From: a virus
Taxonomy: Duplodnaviria; Caudoviricetes
Direction: 5' to 3' (one strand)
IMG/VR virus record: IMGVR_UViG_3300049173_000004
Span: 1-25,565 of that record
DNA: 25,565 bases
The translations under genes and the position numbers were made by a program. The notes beneath the pieces were generated by a model. It was given only the letters and a program-made list of their open reading frames with translations. It had not been told where the DNA came from and did no database searches. Of this stretch, positions 12,934 to 25,565 are shown in pieces; the first letter of the stretch is position 1, and every line of letters starts with the position of its first letter.

Positions 12934-13701
12934 ATGCCAACGATTAAAGATAAATTATATTTCAATTTAGACGGTGTTTGGTCATCCGAATACGGTTTAG
13001 TTCATGTTGTATTAGACGGTGGAATGTACGAAGAAAATCTTGGTGCAAATCGTGAAATCAATGAGAAGAAAGTAAGAAACAATCCAAAGCCTTTATTAAA
13101 TGGTGTAGAAGAAAGTCCAATAGAATTTGAGATGTCAATTGCATTTAAAGATGATTATACAGACGAACTTTTAGACCAAGTTATTAGATGGCTATTTAAA
13201 GATTATTATAGACCGCTTTATTTCCAAGGAGCAGAAAATAAAGTATTCCGTGCAATGGTAGTAGGACAGCCACAAATTGTACATAATGGTCTTCAACAAG
13301 GATATGTGAATCTTTCAATTAGATGTGATTCATCCAACGTTTATTCACCTACAAACATTACACCTATGTATACGGTGTCTGGAACAAAAACCATTACTAT
13401 GAATAGTACGGGTCATGTGGATATATACCCAGAAATCTCAATCTTAAAAATCGGTAACGGTACACTCAAAATTGAATCACTTGATGACATGGGGAATACT
13501 TTCTTGATTAATAATCTAACCAATGGTGAAGACCTTTACCTTAATTGTCAAAGAGAAATAATTACAACAGATGCAATCGGTGTCTATCACTTTGATGACG
13601 TAGTTGGAGAATACCCTCGTCTTATTTATGGAGCTAATCGTTTCAAAATAACGGGAGATTGCAAGATACAATTTCGCTATATTGACAAATACAGATTTTG
13701 A
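12934..13701 (+). CDS. Distal tail protein (Dit; SPbeta YomH-like, Sipho_tail)
   Basis: 255 aa directly after the TMP. Dit-like features: YFNLDGVWSSEYGL, WLFKDYYRPLYF, CDSSNVYS, IYPEI, PRLIYGANRFKITGDCKIQFRY. RBS AAGGAG. Confidence 0.88.
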   Translation: MPTIKDKLYFNLDGVWSSEYGLVHVVLDGGMYEENLGANREINEKKVRNNPKPLLNGVEESPIEFEMSIAFKDDYTDELLDQVIRWLFKDYYRPLYFQGAENKVFRAMVVGQPQIVHNGLQQGYVNLSIRCDSSNVYSPTNITPMYTVSGTKTITMNSTGHVDIYPEISILKIGNGTLKIESLDDMGNTFLINNLTNGEDLYLNCQREIITTDAIGVYHFDDVVGEYPRLIYGANRFKITGDCKIQFRYIDKYRF

Positions 13702-13715
13702 CAATAAGACAGAAA

Positions 13716-13744
13716 TTGACAAATGCTAAAAATTATGATATAAT
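13716..13744 (+). promoter_or_regulatory. Consensus sigma-A promoter (copy 1)
   Basis: TTGACA (13716-13721), 17-bp spacer, TATAAT (13739-13744), with the extended -10 TG at 13736-13737. Confidence 0.85.
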
Positions 13745-13754
13745 AGGAGATATA

Positions 13755-14255
13755 ATGATGATTGGTGATGTACTATTTTTTAAAAAAGAAAATACATTTA
13801 TTTCAAAATTGATTGCAAATATCACAAGTAGTGAATATACACACGTTGGATTGATTGTCGCGTATGACAACATGACAGGTGTAGCAACAATCATCGAATC
13901 TGACCGCTTTGTTAGGACACGCGTTTCCAGAGTTCAATTAGACGACAAGCATGTAGTCTTTACCGCTGGAGATTTGTCAGATGAGACAAGAAAGAAAATA
14001 GTCGACCACGCTTTTAAATCAATTGGTGTGAGTTATGACTATTTGCAAGTAGCTGGATTGTTCTTCTCAATGCTTTTTAAGGGAAAGCGATGTGCGCTAT
14101 TCAACAGTACAAACAAATTAATATGTTCAGAGTTAATTGACTTAGCTTATTATTCTTCTGGTGTCAAAAGAATATCGGTAGAGAATCTTGGGAATATCAT
14201 GCCTTCTGAGCTTATACGTTTTTATGAGTTAAAGAGCTTTGTCAAGGAGGTGTAA
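13755..14255 (+). CDS. Permuted papain-like NlpC/P60 cysteine hydrolase (YaeF/YiiX, peptidase C92-like)
   Basis: GDVLFF...ITSSEYTHVGL (His first)...IGVSYDY...LICSELI (Cys last) is the permuted catalytic order. The start is moved from 13698 to ATG 13755 (or 13758) because AGGAGA lies at 13745-13750 and the family motif starts there. Confidence 0.85.
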   Translation: MMIGDVLFFKKENTFISKLIANITSSEYTHVGLIVAYDNMTGVATIIESDRFVRTRVSRVQLDDKHVVFTAGDLSDETRKKIVDHAFKSIGVSYDYLQVAGLFFSMLFKGKRCALFNSTNKLICSELIDLAYYSSGVKRISVENLGNIMPSELIRFYELKSFVKEV

Positions 14256-14258
14256 AGA

Positions 14259-16925
14259 TTGTTTATTGATGTTGATTACAAGAAAAGATTAAAAGGTGCG
14301 AAATTCCATTTAGCAAGACCTAACCGTATTCCGATTGACGTAATCCATGAAAGATTTGAAGAATCCATTTCTGTAAAGCTAGGAAATATTGGAGAGCTAA
14401 GCTTTTCAATCCCTTATGAAATTGAAGATGCCAATACAGGAGAATACATAACTAATCCTCAAATTCACTCAATTAAAGAACTTATGCTCATAAGAGTTAC
14501 GATGGAGTCATTTGAAGAATGGTATGTCGTAAGCGAAATAAAGGAAGATAGCGACGATGATGAAGTCTTCAATGTAACAGCATTCTCTCTTGGATATGAG
14601 CTACGTAGAAAGAAAATAACAGGCATAGAAGAGGAATCAATTAACCTCACTCAATTAATGACCATGTTGTTAAGTGAGACTGTTTGGAAAATCGGAACAA
14701 TCGACCCTATGTTTGATGCTATGTTCCGCTCGTTTGAGTCTGGAGATAATACAAATATTCTAGACTGCATTACACAAGCGATTGAGACATTTGGTGCGTT
14801 GATTATTTGGGATACGATTAACAAAACGATTTCATTCAAAGATGCAACAAAGAATGGCAAGTTTAGAGGGATGATTGTTAAAGATGGTCAATTCCTTAAC
14901 ACCGTTTCAAGAACAAGAAGTACCGATGAAATGGTAACACGCTTCCATATGGAAGGTAGTGAAGGTCTAACAATTCACAGTGTCAATCCTACAGGTATGG
15001 GTTATGTTGAGAACTTTGATTACTTCATGCATCCATTTAAGCGTGATGCAAATAAGAATGTTATCCAGAGTTCATATTATATGTCAGATGCCTTGTGTCA
15101 CGCTTTACTAGACCAGCAGAGCTTATTGTTTGCGAATGCACCTAGAATTAAGACATTAAGTGATACACTCATTGCAAAGCAAACGGAATTGATTACAGAA
15201 CAATCTAAACTAGATGAGCTTAATAATCAATTAAAGAATCTAGAAGGGCTACTTGATACAGCAAAAGGTACAGAAGACAAAAAAGCAATCACGGATAGAA
15301 CAAATGATATCAACACTAAGAAAGGTCAGATTGCTACACAGGAGCAAGTCGTAAACTTAATCAAAGTGGCAATGGCAAATGCTGAATTAGAGTTAGAGAC
15401 GTTACAAAATCAAATCTCTCACGAAGCAAATTTCACACCTCAACTTGTTGAAGAGCTTGATTCGTATATTCTTGATGATACTTGGATAGATGACAATTAC
15501 ACAACAGCAAAAGACCTCTATGAAGAGGGTTTAAAGAAGTTTGAAGAAATTAGAAAACCAAAAGTAGTTATAGAAATTGAGATTGAAAATCTTTTAAACA
15601 TTATTGAAGAACAATACTACTGGGACAAAATCGTTATTGGCGATTTAATCAAGGTTAAATATCCTCGAATGAACATTGAGTACATGGCAAAAATCATTGA
15701 GATTACATTCAATTTAGAAGAGCAGACCGCTACTCTAACTGTTGCCAATAATGCAGATTTGTTAAACGACACAGAGAAGCTTGTACAGCTACTCAACCAA
15801 ACCTCGAATGCAGTTTCATTAGTCACAGCAAACAAATACAAATGGGATAAGATTAATGCCGTACAAAAAGAAGTAAGCTCTATTTTAACGAGTGAATGGG
15901 ATGCCACGAAGAATAAGATTACCGCTGGTGTCAATAACTCTGTTGAAGTAGGAAGACGCGGTATCATTATTAAAAATCCAGACTTTCCTCAAGAGGTTGT
16001 CATCATGCAAAGTGGTGTCATTGCTTTATCGATGGATGGCGGAGAGACATGGAAGACAGCTATTAAACCAGATGGTATTGTAGCAGAGCGGTTGATTGGT
16101 CAGATTATCGCTGGTCAAGAATTACTTATTACGAATAGTAGCGGTTCATTCACATTAGATAATAATGGTGCAAAATTTAACGTAAACTCATTTATCATTG
16201 AATCTGGAAACGGTACGAATGTTGTCGAGAAATGGCAAAGTGCTTCGGAGTTCATAGATGAGTTTAAGGATGATGGAATTATCACTCCTTATGAGAAAAA
16301 GATGTTAAAGATTGAGTTCGATAAAATTATCGATAAATACAACGCTTATCAAGTCAAGATAGATACATATTTTCCAGACCATAATGGAGCATATCAATTT
16401 ATCAATAATTATGTAAGCGCTTACCAAGCTTTATATGATTACTTGTTTGTTGAGCTTCAAGGAGATAAACCGCTCCTAGCAAGTACAAATATGGCATATT
16501 CTACACGAGTAGATAGCGCGGTATATGCATCGAAATTTAAGAGCTACGAAACATCTGAAACAGAACTAGATAAGCAGATTACGATTAAGTTTAAGAATCA
16601 GCTTCAAGATTTAAAAGACCAGACTCAGAGTGATATTGAAGAGGTTATGAATGATGTAGCCTACAGTATAAGTCTTTTCTCTACGAATGGACTAATCTTC
16701 AAAAATGGGAATGTTCAAACAGATATCATTGCGACTGTCTATAAAGGCACACAGGATATCACAAGCACACTTTCCAACTCACAATTTATCTGGAAGAAAT
16801 TCAATGAAGGCTTAGTAGACATTGCATGGAATACAGCTCATGCAAATGTCGGTAATAGAATTACAGTGACAAAAGCGGATGTATATAAAACAGCAGATTT
16901 TCAGTGTTTTATTGATATCCCTTAA
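14259..16925 (+). CDS. Tal/baseplate-hub tail protein (SPbeta YomG-like, prophage tail endopeptidase-like N-terminus) with C-terminal helical and Ig-like extension
   Basis: Follows Dit. TTG start with RBS AAGGAGGTG. Motifs ELSFSIP, MVTRFHMEGSEGLTIHSVNPTG, IGDLIKV, DGGETWKTAIKPDGIVAERLIG are typical of this family. Confidence 0.88.
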   Translation: MFIDVDYKKRLKGAKFHLARPNRIPIDVIHERFEESISVKLGNIGELSFSIPYEIEDANTGEYITNPQIHSIKELMLIRVTMESFEEWYVVSEIKEDSDDDEVFNVTAFSLGYELRRKKITGIEEESINLTQLMTMLLSETVWKIGTIDPMFDAMFRSFESGDNTNILDCITQAIETFGALIIWDTINKTISFKDATKNGKFRGMIVKDGQFLNTVSRTRSTDEMVTRFHMEGSEGLTIHSVNPTGMGYVENFDYFMHPFKRDANKNVIQSSYYMSDALCHALLDQQSLLFANAPRIKTLSDTLIAKQTELITEQSKLDELNNQLKNLEGLLDTAKGTEDKKAITDRTNDINTKKGQIATQEQVVNLIKVAMANAELELETLQNQISHEANFTPQLVEELDSYILDDTWIDDNYTTAKDLYEEGLKKFEEIRKPKVVIEIEIENLLNIIEEQYYWDKIVIGDLIKVKYPRMNIEYMAKIIEITFNLEEQTATLTVANNADLLNDTEKLVQLLNQTSNAVSLVTANKYKWDKINAVQKEVSSILTSEWDATKNKITAGVNNSVEVGRRGIIIKNPDFPQEVVIMQSGVIALSMDGGETWKTAIKPDGIVAERLIGQIIAGQELLITNSSGSFTLDNNGAKFNVNSFIIESGNGTNVVEKWQSASEFIDEFKDDGIITPYEKKMLKIEFDKIIDKYNAYQVKIDTYFPDHNGAYQFINNYVSAYQALYDYLFVELQGDKPLLASTNMAYSTRVDSAVYASKFKSYETSETELDKQITIKFKNQLQDLKDQTQSDIEEVMNDVAYSISLFSTNGLIFKNGNVQTDIIATVYKGTQDITSTLSNSQFIWKKFNEGLVDIAWNTAHANVGNRITVTKADVYKTADFQCFIDIP

Positions 16926-16961
16926 ATATAAAAAATAATGGTATAAAAGGATGATTTTATT

Positions 16962-18704
16962 ATGGCACAAGTGGCTTCTGGGCAAATCACGCTCACAGAT
17001 TTAAACGATTCAAAACAATTGGTGATGTATATTGGTGCATCACAATCTCGAACAGTAATTTTTAATGGAGTATCTACATATGCTCCAAACTATGCAAGTA
17101 CAAACCAAATTCTAACACCTCAATTATTTATTGCAGGAACAACGACAGATGTATCCGCTCAATCTACATCTACTAAATGGTTCGTACAAGTAAATGGCTC
17201 TGGAACACCAACAGAGATTACAGCGACTACAACTGATTACACACTAGGTGTAGGAGCACCTAAGACATTAACTCTTAAGACAAACTTACTAACCAGTAAC
17301 ACATCAATGACTTATATTTGTGAAATGCAATATCCAGACCCTTCAACTGGATTCACTGTAACAGCTAAAGCAGAAATTGAGATTGTTAAAGTAACGAATG
17401 GTACGAATGGTGCAAATGCTATTACAGCAGTTCTAACAAACGATGCAGATTCGGTTGGTGCGGATTCTTCTGGTGGTAGCCAAATTATCACAGGTGTATC
17501 TTCTACTATTACAGTTTATGAAGGTGCAACAGATGTAACAAGTTTATGGAGTATGGGTACTCCTGTAGTAACAGGTTTAGGAGCTTTAAATACAGCATAT
17601 ACATTAACTGGTGCACCTGCAAATAGAACATTTACCTTAACAGGAACAAATCCAATGACAGCAGATGTAGCAACAGTTACATGGACATTGACTCGTAGTG
17701 GATACTCAAGCATTACAAAAATGTTTACAATCAATAGAATTAGAAATGGTGTAGCTGGTACATCACCAACTATTTATCGTTTAATTCCAAGCACGAATGC
17801 GTTTCAGCAAAACATCTCTGGAGTATTTACTCCAACGACTCTTACGGTTACTGGTAAATCACAGACTGGTACAGGCGCATATGGTAACTATGCGGGTAAG
17901 TTTATGATTTTTGAATCAACAGATGGAACTAACTTTGGTACAGCTAAGTACACAACAGGTGCAACAGATGAATCATCAAAAGTCTACACTCCTTCTGCAA
18001 CAAATGTTAAAGCTATCAAGGTTCAAATGTATCTGGCTGGAGGAACAACTACACTACTTGATGAGCAAATTATCCCTGTAGTTAAAGATGGTGCAACTGG
18101 TGCAGTAGGTAATGACTCACTGTATGCAAATGTTTGGACTCCAGATGGTAACACGGTTCGTAACTCACAAGGTAGTTTAACGGTTGAAGTTGACCTATTC
18201 AAAGGCGCTGGTCAAGTTACTCCATCAGCATTTAAATGGTACATCCAAGACCCAACAGCAACAACCGCTTCTGGTGGAGACACAGATGGTGGAGATGGTT
18301 GGAGACTATTAACATCAACTTATAACGTGGGTATTACAGGCTATACAGCGGATAAGATTACTGTTCCTGCTTCTGCTATTGCTGGAGTAGAATCATTCAA
18401 ATCTGTCGTTACATACAGCTCTGCAAAGTATAGTGGAGTAGCAACTGTAATTGATGTAAGTGACCCTATCATGGTTCGTATCGATGGAATTAACGTCTTC
18501 AAGAATGGTCAAGGTACAACAACGCTGACAGCAACATTACTTCGTAACGGTGAAGTATTAAGTCCAACTGGATACACATTTGCATGGTCAATCTATAATG
18601 CAAGTAATGTTAAGACAGCATTTACAGCTAGTACACAAACAATTACAGTCAATGCCTCAGACGTTGCGGGTAAAGCAAATGTTGTCTGTGAAGTATCGAA
18701 ATAA
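16962..18704 (+). CDS. Tail fibre segment made of about five tandem Ig-like beta-sandwich domains
   Basis: 580 aa, Thr/Gly/Ser-rich and beta-strand patterned. Domains are separated by short collagen-like linkers (NGTNGAN, NGVAGT, DGATGAVGND). It lies between Tal and the large fibre gene. Confidence 0.75.
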   Translation: MAQVASGQITLTDLNDSKQLVMYIGASQSRTVIFNGVSTYAPNYASTNQILTPQLFIAGTTTDVSAQSTSTKWFVQVNGSGTPTEITATTTDYTLGVGAPKTLTLKTNLLTSNTSMTYICEMQYPDPSTGFTVTAKAEIEIVKVTNGTNGANAITAVLTNDADSVGADSSGGSQIITGVSSTITVYEGATDVTSLWSMGTPVVTGLGALNTAYTLTGAPANRTFTLTGTNPMTADVATVTWTLTRSGYSSITKMFTINRIRNGVAGTSPTIYRLIPSTNAFQQNISGVFTPTTLTVTGKSQTGTGAYGNYAGKFMIFESTDGTNFGTAKYTTGATDESSKVYTPSATNVKAIKVQMYLAGGTTTLLDEQIIPVVKDGATGAVGNDSLYANVWTPDGNTVRNSQGSLTVEVDLFKGAGQVTPSAFKWYIQDPTATTASGGDTDGGDGWRLLTSTYNVGITGYTADKITVPASAIAGVESFKSVVTYSSAKYSGVATVIDVSDPIMVRIDGINVFKNGQGTTTLTATLLRNGEVLSPTGYTFAWSIYNASNVKTAFTASTQTITVNASDVAGKANVVCEVSK

Positions 18705-18715
18705 CCGCACAGAAA

Positions 18716-18744
18716 TTGACAAATACTAAAAATAATGATATAAT
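18716..18744 (+). promoter_or_regulatory. Consensus sigma-A promoter (copy 2)
   Basis: TTGACA (18716-18721), 17-bp spacer, TATAAT (18739-18744), with extended -10 TG. It matches copy 1 at 35 of 37 positions over 18709-18745. Confidence 0.85.
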
Positions 18745-18758
18745 ATAAGTATGGAAAT

Positions 18759-18793
18759 GAAGGAGAGCTTTTGGATGAAGGCTCTCTTTTCTT
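18759..18793 (+). terminator. Probable intrinsic terminator
   Basis: Stem GAGAGCTTT/AAGGCTCTC (18763-18771/18778-18786, one G-U pair), loop TGGATG, followed by TTTTCTT. Confidence 0.65.
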
Positions 18794-18824
18794 AGATACG
18801 AGGGAAATAAAGGAGTAAAGAGAT

Positions 18825-21800
18825 ATGGCAGATATGTTTAATAACTATGCCGAACTGTCAGCGGTCTATGTCGAAGGTACAGACTATAGAGTCACACTTA
18901 CTAAAAAGATTAAAGACATTGGTATTACCGCTTATCACGGTGGCGGTATAGAGATTGGTTCTACTGAATTAATGCAATATATCTACGAGAAGAAAACAAC
19001 TTGGTCATGGTATGGCTTTGAAGGCTTGTTATCCGCTGACAATAGCAATTTACATATCACATCGACTCACTATGATGAGCCTAGAGGGATGGACTTTGTT
19101 AGCTATGTAAATAGAGCGGTTTCACTTCATGGAGCAAGTGGAACAGACCCTATCACTTACATTGGTGGTATGGATGTTATTACAAAAGCTTTCATTAAAT
19201 CTAGACTTGAAGCAAAAGGTTTCGTAGTAACATCTGCATCTACTGAAAGTGGTATAGCAGGAGAGACGGTAGAAAACTTTGTGAATAGACCACCAAAAGG
19301 TGGGGTTCAACTAGAAATGTCTACTCAGTTAAGGAAGAGTTTCTTTCTTAATGATGACTGGTCAAAAACAGCTAGGTCAAACAAAGCAAATTGGACACAA
19401 AAACTGAAAGACTATGGCGATGCAGTCATGGAAGGGATTGAGATGGCGTTGGCTTTAAAAACGATTGGAACAGGTCAATTAACCTTATCAGACTTAAATG
19501 ATGCAATTATCAGTGGGACAGCACCAGTTAATCCTACTGTGGGTACACTATGGATAGATACAAATGGAGCAATAAATATTCTTAAAGAGTGGAATGGAAA
19601 CGCTTGGATTAGTCGAGGCGATTTAGACCCTCAAATGGGTACGAAAATTGACAGCATTCAAACTACTTTAGGAAACATGGCGAATGATGACAAGATAGAT
19701 ATTCAAGAGAGAAGAATATTGAAAGATAAGCTAACAGAAATTCTTGGTACTGTAATGAGTGATACAGCTACGACAATGCCTACAACAGCCACACTAGACA
19801 GTAGTGGTAAGGGTAGTTTTTATCAAGTACGGAAATCGGCACTGCTCGTTGGTATTTCAACAGGCGATACAAAGTACTTAAACGTAGCCACACAATACAA
19901 TAACTTGAAAACATATCTAGAAGGTTTAACACCTGTGGAAGTTTGGGACGTTCGAGCCGTAAATAAAGATGTTGTTATTAATGTTACGAAGGCTACATTC
20001 AGAGATAAATGGCTACAGTATTTTAATGCAGTCAATGATTTACTTAATGCAATTGATGAAAAGCAAAAGGCAAATGTTGATAATATCGAAATTGGTCACA
20101 CCAACTATGGAAGTAATGGCAACTTTGAAATGGACATTACAACGTCATTGTGGAAGGATTCTTATACTGGTCAATTAAAAGAAGTGGTCGACATTGGAAC
20201 AGAAACACCACCTCATAAATTTGCATACCATGTGAAAAATACAACAAATGCAAATGGAGGTATTTTTACTCCAACATTGTTTAGTGGAGCTGTAGCAAAT
20301 AACCTACTTGGAAAAGAAATCACAGTTTCTTTCTGGCTCAAGTATACGGGAATTGTTGTAGGAGCTAATAGTTGGAATAATGGTCGATTTGGAGAAATCA
20401 TTATCAGTGCTAAAAAAGCAGATGCCTCAATGATTTACACTTATCCAGCAGTATTAAATGTAAGCGGTAGCAATGCTGGATGGGTCAAGTATTCGAAAAC
20501 AATTAAGATTGATATGCCAACAGGTGGAACAGAAATTACAAACATCCAATTCAAACACGGTATGGAAGGTTGTACAGGCGAATTTTGGACAACAGGAATT
20601 AAGATTGAGTTCGGTAACAAGGTTACAGATTGGAGTCAAAGTCCATTAGACTTACAACAGCGATTAACAAGTGTTGAGTTTAAGGTTTCTGATAACGAAA
20701 TCATTTCTAAAGTGACATCTAGTAGCAAATATATGACAGACTTCCAAGCGGTTAATACAAGAATTGATATGGCTGGTTCGGCTGGAGTTAACCTAGTCGA
20801 TGGGTCAGAGTTTAAAACATTACCTCTGTCTTGGAATGGAGCGGGATTACTATTAGTCGAAGGTGCAAGTGGTCAACCTAACTCATTAATTGTAAGCAAA
20901 CCCGCTGGTGGAGCATCGTATGCATTCACTCTATACGGAACATCAATGTTTAAGAAAGATGAGTATTATACAATTTCTTTCGAGGCAAAAACAGATGGAA
21001 CGCTAGACCAATTCAACTACATATACCTTCGAGGCAACGGTGTATCAAACTATCAAGTACCAACATCTATTACGATTGATAAAACGAATACGACAGGATT
21101 TGTATTCTATAGTGTAACGGTCAAAGCACCATACGATTTTCCAGCGAATGCAGGAATCATGATAGGAACAAATGGACAGACAGCACCATTTGAAATTAGA
21201 AAACCACAGATTGAACGTGGTGGGAAAGCATCAGATTGGAAATCATCTAATACAGACCGCTCAAATGCTTTAGGAGCTTCAATGGATGCAAGCAGTATGG
21301 TTACTAACTCAACTTTCTATAAGTGGGGTGGAACACACTCTAAATACCCAACAGGCATGACGCATTGGACTGGTACATTCTATGGTCAACGTGAATTGAC
21401 ATTAACTAAGAATGGTGGAAATGCTTTACGATTCCAGAACACAGGGACAAATGACGCAGGAGCAAACCTTAGTACTGGATTCTTTAAACCAAATTTAGCT
21501 AATACAAAGTATCTAATGGTCGAAGTTGATTTCTATGTTAACAGCGGAACAGACTTAACAGCATCGGGAATCTTGATTGACTGGCTATCTAATGGAAGTA
21601 TAAGAAGGCAACACAGGCTTCAAGATATGGTCAACGAAACGATTGTAACAGGTAAATGGTATTCTGGTCGAAAACTATTTGTCAGACCTACAGATACCGT
21701 CACAGGCTTTACAGGAGCAATGAGTGGATACATAATGGCTAACTGGGCTACTCTTGGAACAAAAGCAGATAAAGACATTATCTTTGATAGACTATCAGTT

Positions 21801-23774
21801 AGAGAGGCAACAGTCGAAGAGATTAAAGCATATAGTGCAGATGCAACAATCGCTGATATGATGAGCGATATGAAGATTACTCCAGTTGAAAAGAGTACAT
21901 TAAAACAAACATGGGACAACATTAAATCAGAGTATGCAATTTTAGTAGCTCAAGCGCAAGCAACGGCTGTTACATATTCTGTATACAATAATGCTTATAC
22001 AGTATTAAACGGCTCAACCCCTAAAATTGAATCCGAAATTTTGGCTTCAATGACTACAACATATACCTTCGCTTCAACAACAGCTCGTGACACATTTAAA
22101 ACTCAATTAAACACATATTATAACGAAGCTTTACGATTAAGAAAAACGATTGATGATGTACTTGCTAGTCCTAAGAACTTAATTCTCAATTCAACATTTA
22201 ACCGAAAAGATGACGCAGGAGCTTTAACAAGCTGGAACAATGTCAATGCAGTATGGAAAGTTATTGACCCAGAATCAGATAAACCAACAAGCAATATTTT
22301 AAAAGCCACAGCAACAGGAAATACAACAAATCCTATTTACTCAGCTCATTCAAACTGGTTTACAGTCAAGCAAGGAGATATCTTCACTTTCGCAATTGAC
22401 TTCAAGGTAACAAGTGCTACAGCATGGGATGTTAAAAATCCATTCATCATTGAGTTTTGGGATAGTGCTACAACCTCTACTCGTGTCCAATATCAAGACG
22501 TTTCCGCTACGAATCTAGGAGTCACTACAGTAGCAGATAACACTTGGTATCGCGGTTCAATCACTGTACAAGTGACAAGTGCCACAGCTACCAGAGGAAG
22601 AATCAGATTAGGATTATTTAAGAATGGTGAGCTATTTATCCGTGAGGTGCAAGTACAACGTGGACATAAAGCTACTGATTATCAATATGCACCAGAAGAT
22701 ACATATGAGCAAATCAACTTGATTCAAGAACAGGTCAATCAAGCAATGACGCAGATTACGTCAGATGCGATTATCGACACAGTAACAAAAGGAATTAACT
22801 TTGATGCTTATGCATTAGCAGATAAGCTAGGAGACTATGCAACAAACACTGACCTTGATGGTGCAGTTTCGGATACTTTAAATGAAGTAGATAACAAGAT
22901 TAAAGCAATCGATTATTCAGATTATGTAACACAATCACAGTTTACGAGAACAGCATCAGACATCACAGCCAAGTTTAAATCTAGTGGCGGTATCAATATG
23001 CTACGAAACTCTGTTGGGTTCTCATATCTAGACTTCTGGACAATAAGTGGAGCGGTTGAAACGACAACCAATCGAGAGCTTGAAGGACTAGGATATACGA
23101 GTGGATTCATGTTTAGACAAGGTGTAGCGGGATACATTGAGCAAAATGTTTATACGGTTGTAGGTCAACAATACACAGTCTCATTCTTACTAAATAAAAC
23201 AAAAGACAATACAACTAACAACTATGCTGGAATGGATATCTACGATGCAAACGGTGGCAAGTTGATATTCACAGGTTTAGGAACAGGTTTAACATCTGGA
23301 TATGATTTATATTCATTCACATTTGTAGCACCTACCGCTTTTGTGAAAATTAGATTTACAGTCGGGTCAAATGCAGAAGCAATCATTACAGGAGCTATGT
23401 GCAACATTGGCGACCAACCTCTTCAATGGAGCATGCATCCACAAGAGATTTACAATACGAATATCAGAATGGATTTGAACGGTATTCGTGTCACACAAAT
23501 CGATTCTACGGATGCAAGTAATCCAATCCAAATTGGTTACACAGTTATGACTCCAGATAAGTTTGCTGGATACTACGATGTCAACGGTGACGGTGTAATT
23601 GATAGCTCGAAAGGTTCAATCGATGAAGTCTTTCGAATGGATAAAGATGAGTTTGTGATGAAGAAGGCTAACGTCAAAGAAGAGATTACGATGGGAACGA
23701 TTAAAGTAATCAAAATCGACACGGCAGGAAGTCCATATGTCGGATGGGCGTTTGTAAGTAATCAAACTAGTTAA
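18825..23774 (+). CDS. Large tail fibre / receptor-binding protein with N-terminal poly-gamma-glutamate hydrolase (PghP/DUF867-like) domain and about five CBM-like domains
   Basis: Residues ~1-205 carry PghP-family motifs (YHGGGIEIG, LHITSTHYDEP, VSLHG, GGVQLEMSTQLR). Then come TAPVNPTVGTLWIDT, helical bundles, repeated N(L/M)xxNSxF...E/QxGxKxxDW/Y CBM_4_9-like units, and a Tal-type C-terminus (EIYNTNIRMDLNGIRV...GWAFV). RBS AAGGAG. Confidence 0.88.
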   Translation: MADMFNNYAELSAVYVEGTDYRVTLTKKIKDIGITAYHGGGIEIGSTELMQYIYEKKTTWSWYGFEGLLSADNSNLHITSTHYDEPRGMDFVSYVNRAVSLHGASGTDPITYIGGMDVITKAFIKSRLEAKGFVVTSASTESGIAGETVENFVNRPPKGGVQLEMSTQLRKSFFLNDDWSKTARSNKANWTQKLKDYGDAVMEGIEMALALKTIGTGQLTLSDLNDAIISGTAPVNPTVGTLWIDTNGAINILKEWNGNAWISRGDLDPQMGTKIDSIQTTLGNMANDDKIDIQERRILKDKLTEILGTVMSDTATTMPTTATLDSSGKGSFYQVRKSALLVGISTGDTKYLNVATQYNNLKTYLEGLTPVEVWDVRAVNKDVVINVTKATFRDKWLQYFNAVNDLLNAIDEKQKANVDNIEIGHTNYGSNGNFEMDITTSLWKDSYTGQLKEVVDIGTETPPHKFAYHVKNTTNANGGIFTPTLFSGAVANNLLGKEITVSFWLKYTGIVVGANSWNNGRFGEIIISAKKADASMIYTYPAVLNVSGSNAGWVKYSKTIKIDMPTGGTEITNIQFKHGMEGCTGEFWTTGIKIEFGNKVTDWSQSPLDLQQRLTSVEFKVSDNEIISKVTSSSKYMTDFQAVNTRIDMAGSAGVNLVDGSEFKTLPLSWNGAGLLLVEGASGQPNSLIVSKPAGGASYAFTLYGTSMFKKDEYYTISFEAKTDGTLDQFNYIYLRGNGVSNYQVPTSITIDKTNTTGFVFYSVTVKAPYDFPANAGIMIGTNGQTAPFEIRKPQIERGGKASDWKSSNTDRSNALGASMDASSMVTNSTFYKWGGTHSKYPTGMTHWTGTFYGQRELTLTKNGGNALRFQNTGTNDAGANLSTGFFKPNLANTKYLMVEVDFYVNSGTDLTASGILIDWLSNGSIRRQHRLQDMVNETIVTGKWYSGRKLFVRPTDTVTGFTGAMSGYIMANWATLGTKADKDIIFDRLSVREATVEEIKAYSADATIADMMSDMKITPVEKSTLKQTWDNIKSEYAILVAQAQATAVTYSVYNNAYTVLNGSTPKIESEILASMTTTYTFASTTARDTFKTQLNTYYNEALRLRKTIDDVLASPKNLILNSTFNRKDDAGALTSWNNVNAVWKVIDPESDKPTSNILKATATGNTTNPIYSAHSNWFTVKQGDIFTFAIDFKVTSATAWDVKNPFIIEFWDSATTSTRVQYQDVSATNLGVTTVADNTWYRGSITVQVTSATATRGRIRLGLFKNGELFIREVQVQRGHKATDYQYAPEDTYEQINLIQEQVNQAMTQITSDAIIDTVTKGINFDAYALADKLGDYATNTDLDGAVSDTLNEVDNKIKAIDYSDYVTQSQFTRTASDITAKFKSSGGINMLRNSVGFSYLDFWTISGAVETTTNRELEGLGYTSGFMFRQGVAGYIEQNVYTVVGQQYTVSFLLNKTKDNTTNNYAGMDIYDANGGKLIFTGLGTGLTSGYDLYSFTFVAPTAFVKIRFTVGSNAEAIITGAMCNIGDQPLQWSMHPQEIYNTNIRMDLNGIRVTQIDSTDASNPIQIGYTVMTPDKFAGYYDVNGDGVIDSSKGSIDEVFRMDKDEFVMKKANVKEEITMGTIKVIKIDTAGSPYVGWAFVSNQTS

Positions 23775-23803: not shown

Positions 23804-25565
23804 ATGGCTCTTTCGGGCAGTTTTTATCAAAATGTAGGTTCGGGATATCGTTTACAGACTGAATGGAGCGCAACCCAGAGCGTTGCAAATAATACAAGTA
23901 CAATTACAGTTAAATTATACTGGATGAGTTTAGGTTCGGCTTACTATGTTAACTCAAGTGATAGTAAGCCAGTATCTATCCAAATTGACGGAGAAGCATT
24001 TCCCGCTAACAAAGCTGGTTTAGCGGATTTGAACGGAAACCAAAAGAAGCTGATTCACTCAGCTTCTAAAACGGTTTCACATAATAGTGTTGGTGAGAAA
24101 TCTGCTTCAATCGTCGTCAACTTTGACCTTCAAGGAATTAGATTGAGTGGTACAACTTACAACAATATTTCAGATAGTGGAACGGCAAATTTAAATACAA
24201 TTCCACGAGCAAGTACGATTACATCATCTCTGAATTGGAAAGCACCAAATGCTTTTCCGATTTCGATAAGTCGCTCAAGCTCAAACTTTTATCATGACAT
24301 TGAAGTGCATGTGAAAAGAAAATCATCATCTACTTGGACACTGATTAAGACATACTCTAATGTGTCAACATATGTCGGTGGAGGATATGAATTAGATGAG
24401 ATGAAAAAAGTATTCCAGACACTTGCTACAGATTCTAGCGGTCATACACGTATTATTATTAAAACTTATAACGGCTCTGGCTCTGGTCGTACATATGTTG
24501 GAGCACACGACTATGGGGTTGATAGTGGATATGATGGTGGAGAAGTAGTAGTAGAATATTCCAGTAAGATTACAACCTCTGCAAGCTGGAATATAGGCGA
24601 TTCTGTTGGAGTTTCGATTGCTCGTAATCATCCTAGTTACACACATGTAATTAAATTCTATGCAAACAACCAATTGATACACACATCTCCTACGGTTGAA
24701 TACAGTTATACGTGGAATCCAACAACTACCGAAAATAATAATATGTATGCTCAAACACCAAACTCAAACACGGTTGCATCAAAAATAGAAACAATTACTT
24801 ATTACAATGGAATACAAGTTGATGTTTCGAAAAATGCAACAGGCACAGCTACAGTAACTAATTCAAATCCCACTTTCGGTACGGGTTATACATATGCAGA
24901 TACAAATGCAACCACTATTGCAATCACAGGGAATGACCAATACATCATTCAAAACAAATCAACTGTTCGAGTTAGTATACCAACAACAGCAAATGCTACA
25001 GCAATCAATAGTGCATCAATGAAGTCATACAGCGTGACATTGAATGGGGTTACGAAGACCGCTAACTACTCTACAACCACCACATTGACATTCGATTTTG
25101 GAGCGGTGAATATAAGCTCCAACTTAACATTAGTGGTAAAAGCAATAGATAGTCGTGGAAACTCTACACAGACCTCTAAAACGGTTTTAATCGTTCCTTG
25201 GTCGCCTCCAGTAGTAAATACAGATGCAAAGCGATTAAACGGATTTGAAGACTCTACGACAGTTACAATGAAAGGTAGTATTTCCAATCTAAAAGTAGGA
25301 ACAACTGACAAGAATGCAATCCTGTCTATGCAGTATCGATACAAAGATGCAGTTACAGCAAATGCTGTTTTTGGTGCTTGGACTAACTTTACATATACGA
25401 CAACTGGTATGAACTATACAGCTACAGATGTAACTCTTACTCTAGATAAGTTAAAATCTTGGACATTTGAAATTAAAACAACTGATAAGCTCGGAACAAC
25501 AACAATTACAAAAACAGTAAATAAAGGGCAACCGATTCTATTCATAGATTCAAAGTTAAACTCTG
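23804..25565 (+). CDS. DUF859-like siphovirus minor structural/tail-tip protein, 3'-truncated by the window edge
   Basis: Absent from the ORF track, apparently because no stop occurs before the window end. RBS AAGGAG, ATG at 23804. MALSGSFYQNVGSGYRLQTEWSATQSVANNTSTITVKLYW...VSHNSVGEKS...LNTIPRAS is the typical DUF859 N-terminus. The same frame ends ...KGQPILFIDSKLNS. Confidence 0.85.
   Translation, partial: MALSGSFYQNVGSGYRLQTEWSATQSVANNTSTITVKLYWMSLGSAYYVNSSDSKPVSIQIDGEAFPANKAGLADLNGNQKKLIHSASKTVSHNSVGEKSASIVVNFDLQGIRLSGTTYNNISDSGTANLNTIPRASTITSSLNWKAPNAFPISISRSSSNFYHDIEVHVKRKSSSTWTLIKTYSNVSTYVGGGYELDEMKKVFQTLATDSSGHTRIIIKTYNGSGSGRTYVGAHDYGVDSGYDGGEVVVEYSSKITTSASWNIGDSVGVSIARNHPSYTHVIKFYANNQLIHTSPTVEYSYTWNPTTTENNNMYAQTPNSNTVASKIETITYYNGIQVDVSKNATGTATVTNSNPTFGTGYTYADTNATTIAITGNDQYIIQNKSTVRVSIPTTANATAINSASMKSYSVTLNGVTKTANYSTTTTLTFDFGAVNISSNLTLVVKAIDSRGNSTQTSKTVLIVPWSPPVVNTDAKRLNGFEDSTTVTMKGSISNLKVGTTDKNAILSMQYRYKDAVTANAVFGAWTNFTYTTTGMNYTATDVTLTLDKLKSWTFEIKTTDKLGTTTITKTVNKGQPILFIDSKLNS

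Follow-up and report, generated by a model that had tools for sequence, protein, structure and literature searches.

Candidate strand-completion joints between separately encoded proteins of a phage central tail fibre

The stretch of DNA analysed here (the window; 25,565 nucleotides) is a 25.6-kb piece of a virus record that is ~16% complete. It carries a tail module with genes for an integrase, the tape measure protein, Dit, a C92 peptidase-like protein, Tal, a 580-aa protein (the adaptor), a 1649-aa protein and a cut-off tail protein (Table 1). Family matches place a Dit gene upstream and a hub domain at the N-terminus of Tal. Tal, the adaptor and the 1649-aa protein are encoded by three open reading frames (ORFs) with separate starts, and not as an extension of one polypeptide. 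As the named relatives of the 580-aa protein include proteins of the Bacillus phages Kirov, Thrax3 and Sophrita (50-54%) and a Priestia protein, the window probably derives from a large Tsamsa-like phage of Bacillaceae. Note that the tyrosine integrase gene (397-1398) sits directly 5' of the tape measure gene. A permuted papain-like C92 (YaeF/YiiX) gene (13698-14255) lies between Dit and Tal and is kept in many related loci; in two of them (L012 and L015) it occupies another place in the module.

Table 1. Tail genes and candidate joint elements, in window coordinates.
Feature	Position	Strand	Evidence
Dit, distal tail protein	12934..13701	+	phrog_33 E 1.7e-24; PF20195/PF20753
Tal, 888 aa, YomG-type tail tip protein, base of the chain	14259..16925	+	PF24049 YOMG_N E 4.9e-21; phrog_6211, phrog_8704
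Socket 1, C-terminal Ig-like domain of Tal, predicted strands A-F, without G	16659..16922	+	alignment to complete copies
580-aa adaptor: plug, four complete Ig-like domains, terminal socket	16962..18704	+	phrog_3267; tandem Ig-like fold matches
Plug 1, N-terminal candidate donor strand, SGQITLTDLND, aa 6-16	16965..17012	+	conserved in alignment A2
Adaptor domain 4, socket and plug complete in-chain; last strand SGVATVIDVSD	18114..18467	+	model strands; motif score
Socket 2, adaptor domain 5, stops after strand F	18468..18701	+	last strand 573-579 in model
1649-aa distal fibre protein	18825..23774	+	phrog_6613, 2929, 38688; resembles single-chain Tal P0205
Poly-gamma-glutamate hydrolase domain, precedes plug 2	18837..19409	+	PF05908 aa 5-195, E 2.4e-48
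Plug 2, candidate donor strand, TGQLTLSDLND, aa 216-226	19461..19505	+	motif score
Next tail gene, cut by window end	23804..25564	+	phrog_372 'tail protein'

The initial annotation had read the ends of these genes as complementary parts of split Ig-like domains, and the motif positions it gave were all recovered in plus-strand ORFs. The C-terminal domain of Tal begins with AYSISLF at 16659, and the ORF ends in QCFIDIP with the stop codon at 16923-16925; the 580-aa protein terminates in VCEVSK (18704). In both proteins the chain ends as soon as strand F of an Ig-like domain (the socket) is complete. Near its N-terminus the 580-aa protein contains ASGQITLTDLNDS (16974-17012), and in its domain 4 the strands encoded at 18357-18422 are followed by YSGVATVIDVSDP (18429-18467). 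The 1649-aa protein contains GTGQLTLSDLNDA (19467-19505; aa 215-227). The two terminal domains had been described as closely resembling each other; profiles bear out their homology but not the closeness, with only 29.6% identity over 71 aa (pairwise E 1.8e-5).

A motif matrix trained on the N-termini of 98 relatives of the adaptor scored 33.1 at the adaptor start, 14.0 at the last strand of adaptor domain 4 and 29.4 at residue 216 of the 1649-aa protein. In a shuffled control for the latter motif, the best of 300 shuffles reached 15.7 bits compared to 29.4 bits for the real sequence, and its occurrence is therefore not due to chance. This second copy of the motif (the plug) is internal in the 1649-aa protein of the window and N-terminal in most relatives. 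The gene that follows has no plug motif at its start (best score 4.2 in the first 80 aa) and no DUF859 match (Pfam, E<=0.01; the ORF is cut by the window end).

In an AlphaFold2 monomer model of the adaptor (mean pLDDT 85.3), domains 1-4 end in a two-strand pair (residues 476-485 and 488-499 in domain 4) and domain 5 ends one strand earlier. The free plug was disordered (residues 1-15, pLDDT <50). Thus, folding of the GQxTLxDLND peptide into its own chain, which the initial annotation had held to speak against a joint, was not seen. An N-terminal extension, as expected of a donor, was found for the adaptor and at 58 junctions, that of the adaptor being the one modelled as disordered. A homologue of the adaptor terminal domain aligned to solved Ig domains only through approximately strand F. 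Antibody V-domain matches to a socket-type domain stopped near residues 99-106, beyond which we take strand G of the V-domain to lie. The socket domains are predicted to end without a G strand. No PDB sequence match was found for the joint of the window. In the model of a natural fusion of adaptor and distal protein (L045), the motif formed an ordered strand (85-90, 93-98; pLDDT 72-75), with only three near-identical alignment rows spanning it. Among the 50 structural matches listed for this model none extended past residue 84, so that the motif was not superposed on a known Ig G strand.

These models bear on an alternative in which the three proteins join without completing a fold. The six-strand domain would then be self-sufficient or closed by the trimer, and the peptide would bind elsewhere, by edge-strand addition or through a metal-bridged DxxD. 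Such a joint would agree with adaptor domain 5 being modelled at pLDDT ~80-92 without the extra strand, with the lack of a match between the fused L045 strand and G, and with two Asp being the best-kept plug positions, which recall the DxND calcium linker of cadherins. However, the motif copy of domain 4 forms the last strand in the model, and in all aligned in-chain copies the motif occupies the last-strand position, separated from strand F by a short turn. We consider joining without fold completion very unlikely.

Pairing of socket and plug was analyzed in 92 fetched loci and the window, with exact duplicates dropped and the motif sought in the first 80 residues from the preceding stop. In this set, which was gathered with the adaptor as query and consists of mutually related loci whose counts are not independent, a socket-ending ORF was followed by an ORF with the motif in 59 of 61 adjacent pairs, compared to 4 of 330 control pairs in which the upstream ORF lacked a socket end. 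Absence of co-occurrence across phages, which had been named as grounds for abandoning the split-domain reading, was not seen. All four motif-positive control pairs have, by eye, sub-threshold socket-like upstream ends. The two misses are the window and L016, in which the motif is internal, behind the poly-gamma-glutamate hydrolase and a GH113 domain, respectively. The Tal-to-adaptor half of the count is partly circular, as it overlaps the matrix training set; the adaptor-to-distal junctions do not, and the motif was present at 28 distinct junctions of this kind, none of them used for training.

Eight annotated phage regions were chosen from 339 tblastn matches (GenBank phage records). The motif opens the gene after the Tal-type socket in all eight, and in six a separate distal gene opening with the motif is present after the adaptor. 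In phiNIT1, adaptor and distal motif are fused in frame (orf1237). The adaptor of Blautia phage NatCom_24097 ends in a partial socket, and no plug was found in the next two genes. The same gene split occurs in annotated phages of four host genera. The protein upstream of the adaptor is a siphovirus Tal in some phages and a myovirus protein in phiNIT1, annotated as A511 gp99-like; going by part of the phage 812 paper (PMC13433997), the latter is probably the central spike.

Four of the six regions with a separate distal gene (three streptococcal or lactococcal phages and VRE9_4) have an additional gene of 50-59 aa separating those for adaptor and distal protein (L093:6389-6562, L094:6389-6562, L097:6411-6590 and L100:7408-7560; Streptococcus, Lactococcus, Enterococcus). 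It is absent from the window, and its Sfi11 copy has no Pfam match; an assembly helper is a possible role. Enterococcus phage VRE9_4 (L100:3428-7411) carries three phrog_3267 genes in a row, encoding a fused socket-plug-adaptor, a short socket protein and a free adaptor, and loci of this type may therefore chain more than two joints. Adaptors also differ by whole domains (3, 5 or 7 in L018, L022, L043 and P0121, the last with 1305 aa). The variation in domain number, with plug and socket kept, suggests that the adaptor serves as a length spacer.

We next consider whether the downstream genes yield separate chains. At the 58 junctions a start codon lies 4-7 codons ahead of the motif in every case, with a Shine-Dalgarno (SD)-like site in 50. 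Intergenic gaps measure 25-152 nt, and the reading frame of the motif relative to the preceding stop shows no preference (10/11/9 and 8/9/11). With a start codon of their own and no fixed frame relative to the gene before, the downstream genes encode, as judged from sequence, separate chains; together with the gaps, these features make readthrough or frameshifting unlikely.

Relatives in which the junction is continuous were also found. A search of 1.84 billion representatives with a profile of 33 Tal ends gave 2647 proteins (clusters at 50% identity) at E<=0.001. The best 150 of these 2647 contained 183 full-length socket copies, 142 ending within 12 residues of strand F and 41 internal (3 partial matches were excluded; the profile is biased towards terminal copies, and truncation of some records is possible). 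Of the internal copies in these best 150, 25 of 41 run on into the motif (score at least 8; background 1.4%) and 16 score below 8. In-frame fusions, to which the initial annotation had pointed as informative, exist for both junctions and for Tal directly to the distal protein. P0177 combines in one chain a match to the last 230 residues of the window Tal (E 1e-18) with an adaptor, and in L045, L048 and L049 a single chain comprises both adaptor and distal protein. In P0205, a Tal socket (42% identical to that of the window) is in frame with the motif and a body 52% and 36% identical to segments of the 1649-aa protein, and no adaptor part was found in this single-chain Tal. P0292-P0294 are similar fusions of Tal and distal body. 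Note that P0123, P0126, P0130, P0131, P0165 and P0226 open with a complete socket-plus-plug domain (~aa 14-120), and some also end in a socket.

Downstream of the Tal genes of Streptococcus phages O1205, Sfi11 and TP-J34 lie three unassigned ORFs that are jointly Tal-like, for which sequencing errors or introns have been suggested (PMC7533335, in part). When Sfi11, the one phage of the three compared, was aligned with TP-778L, the single-chain Tal of the latter corresponded to residues 1-908 of Sfi11 gp1000 (93.5%) plus gp695 from residue 14-17. No match in the TP-778L Tal was found for residues 909-1000 of gp1000 (socket), for gp373 (adaptor), for gp57 or for the first residues of gp695 (plug). 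By this comparison, the split Sfi11 Tal is a single-chain Tal with an inserted connector cassette. The extra socket, adaptor and plug argue strongly against the sequencing-error or intron account of Sfi11. The DT1 Tal has an Ig-like domain at 402-490 (part of PMC9437275, Table 1). The window socket is homologous to this domain (E 8.4e-9), and the last DT1 strand aligns with the plug. Long single-chain Tals of S. thermophilus phages (DT1, STP1, TP-778L) share with the window the Dit-Tal-next gene order and, after a helix, a homologous Ig-like domain of ~90 aa that precedes binding modules. In contrast to the window, their domain is complete in one chain, and no split form is described in the part of the source consulted (PMC9437275).

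A single polypeptide made by readthrough, frameshifting or splicing, a split due to sequencing errors, or a functionless scar of gene fission would explain why the split falls where fused relatives run continuous. The random frames, gaps and own starts at the 58 junctions, the identical split in four host genera and the cassette added in Sfi11 argue against all of these. In addition, each of the 7 hydrolase fusions retains the plug despite its internal position. We regard this group of explanations as extremely improbable.

The layout with a poly-gamma-glutamate hydrolase ahead of the plug is shared by the window and 6 relatives. Because chain also precedes the plug in fused forms, N-terminal cargo in this position appears plausible. 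An independent case is L016:1688-7222, with GH113 (E 9.6e-19) fused ahead of the plug. An SD-like sequence, GGAAGGGA (19429-19446), is located a few bases 5' of Met209 in the 1649-aa gene. Initiation at Met209 could give a hydrolase-free isoform beginning 6 residues ahead of plug 2; a Met is present at this site in 2 of 7 relatives.

Gene layout, separate starts, conserved pairing and in-frame fusions are direct observations, and the split-domain reading of the initial annotation is supported. We conclude that Tal, the adaptor and the 1649-aa protein very probably link head to tail by strand completion into one central tail fibre. The upstream chain would end in an Ig-like domain without G, and the GQxTLxDLND peptide of the next chain would supply the strand, completing the beta-sheet by insertion beside strand F. 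Tals are trimeric, so that one adaptor and one distal chain would be attached per Tal chain, resulting in a defined three-part fibre equivalent to the long single-chain Tals. The hydrolase ahead of plug 2 would hang from joint 2 and likely clear poly-gamma-glutamate capsule, while the complete fibre would likely bind the host. In 26 pairs compared, plug 1 and plug 2 of the same locus share 68% identity, and the joint order may therefore rest on features other than the plug core, such as the sockets, flanking residues or assembly timing.

Similar plugs might also permit an open-ended polymer, with the adaptor chaining on itself like a pilin or being skipped, so that the distal protein would cap fibres of varying length. 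Plug cores are 0.61-0.68 alike between junctions compared to 0.68 among adaptors, Tal-type sockets take a distal-type strand in cis in P0168, P0205 and P0292-P0294, and adaptors of 3-, 5- and 7-domain length exist. However, the two sockets differ (30% identity) and remain distinct, and length is tuned by domain number within the adaptor gene, making such a polymer unlikely. A broader version of the strand-completion joint is somewhat doubtful, though conceivable: any plug-bearing protein, even behind an enzyme, would dock any socket. Such a chaperone-free portable standard would allow segments to be inserted, left out, stacked or swapped between siphovirus Tals and the tail-tip proteins of myoviruses, with possible self-polymerisation of the adaptor and mixed fibres per virion.

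In chaperone-usher pili, the C-terminal Ig-like domain lacks strand G, which is supplied by the N-terminal extension of the next subunit, disordered when free. The window proteins are alike in having an acceptor Ig-like domain predicted without G and a candidate donor in the extension of the next chain. They differ from pili in their cytoplasmic assembly, in likely forming a defined heteromeric chain on a trimeric Tal instead of a homopolymer, in their frequent natural fusions, and in that the plug may sit internally behind an enzyme. No sequence relation to chaperone-usher pili was found, and no chaperone or usher was detected among the 7 window proteins scanned (Pfam; record ~16% complete). 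By analogy, the phage joint would work like pilus donor-strand complementation, without being classed as a member.

The nearest phage precedent, going by part of the published account, is BppU-BppA of the Lactococcus phage Tuc2009, in which a C-terminal 25-residue beta-hairpin of BppU completes the titin-like domain of BppA (PMC4742702). In both cases one protein of a siphophage adhesion device supplies, or in the window would supply, what is missing from the C-terminal titin-like beta-sandwich of its partner. In Tuc2009 the donor is a C-terminal hairpin in a single tail-to-tail joint that is not chainable, whereas the window joint would use a single strand, N-terminal or internal, head to tail and twice in series, in central fibres. 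The gp39/gp42 nozzle of the Pseudomonas podophage A1002 likewise has a split gene of which one product gives missing beta-strands; it involves, however, nozzle beta-propeller and platform domains, with no Ig connector and no series repeat in the part of the report consulted (PMC13730344). No description of this Ig plug-socket connector was found in the literature searched, and the portions of PMC9692632, PMC11741397 and PMC3952083 consulted contain no account of it.

If true, the joint would explain how thousands of unassigned 'tail proteins' are attached to the virion (2647 clusters at 50% identity; 339 GenBank phage records). A connector cassette would replace the published suggestion of sequencing errors or introns for Sfi11, O1205 and TP-J34, with Sfi11 alone compared. 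The joint provides a short peptide-domain pair open to direct testing; as a small non-covalent protein connector, it might also serve for display on dairy or Bacillus phages. For the phages themselves, it would provide a route to the modular evolution of receptor-binding fibres.
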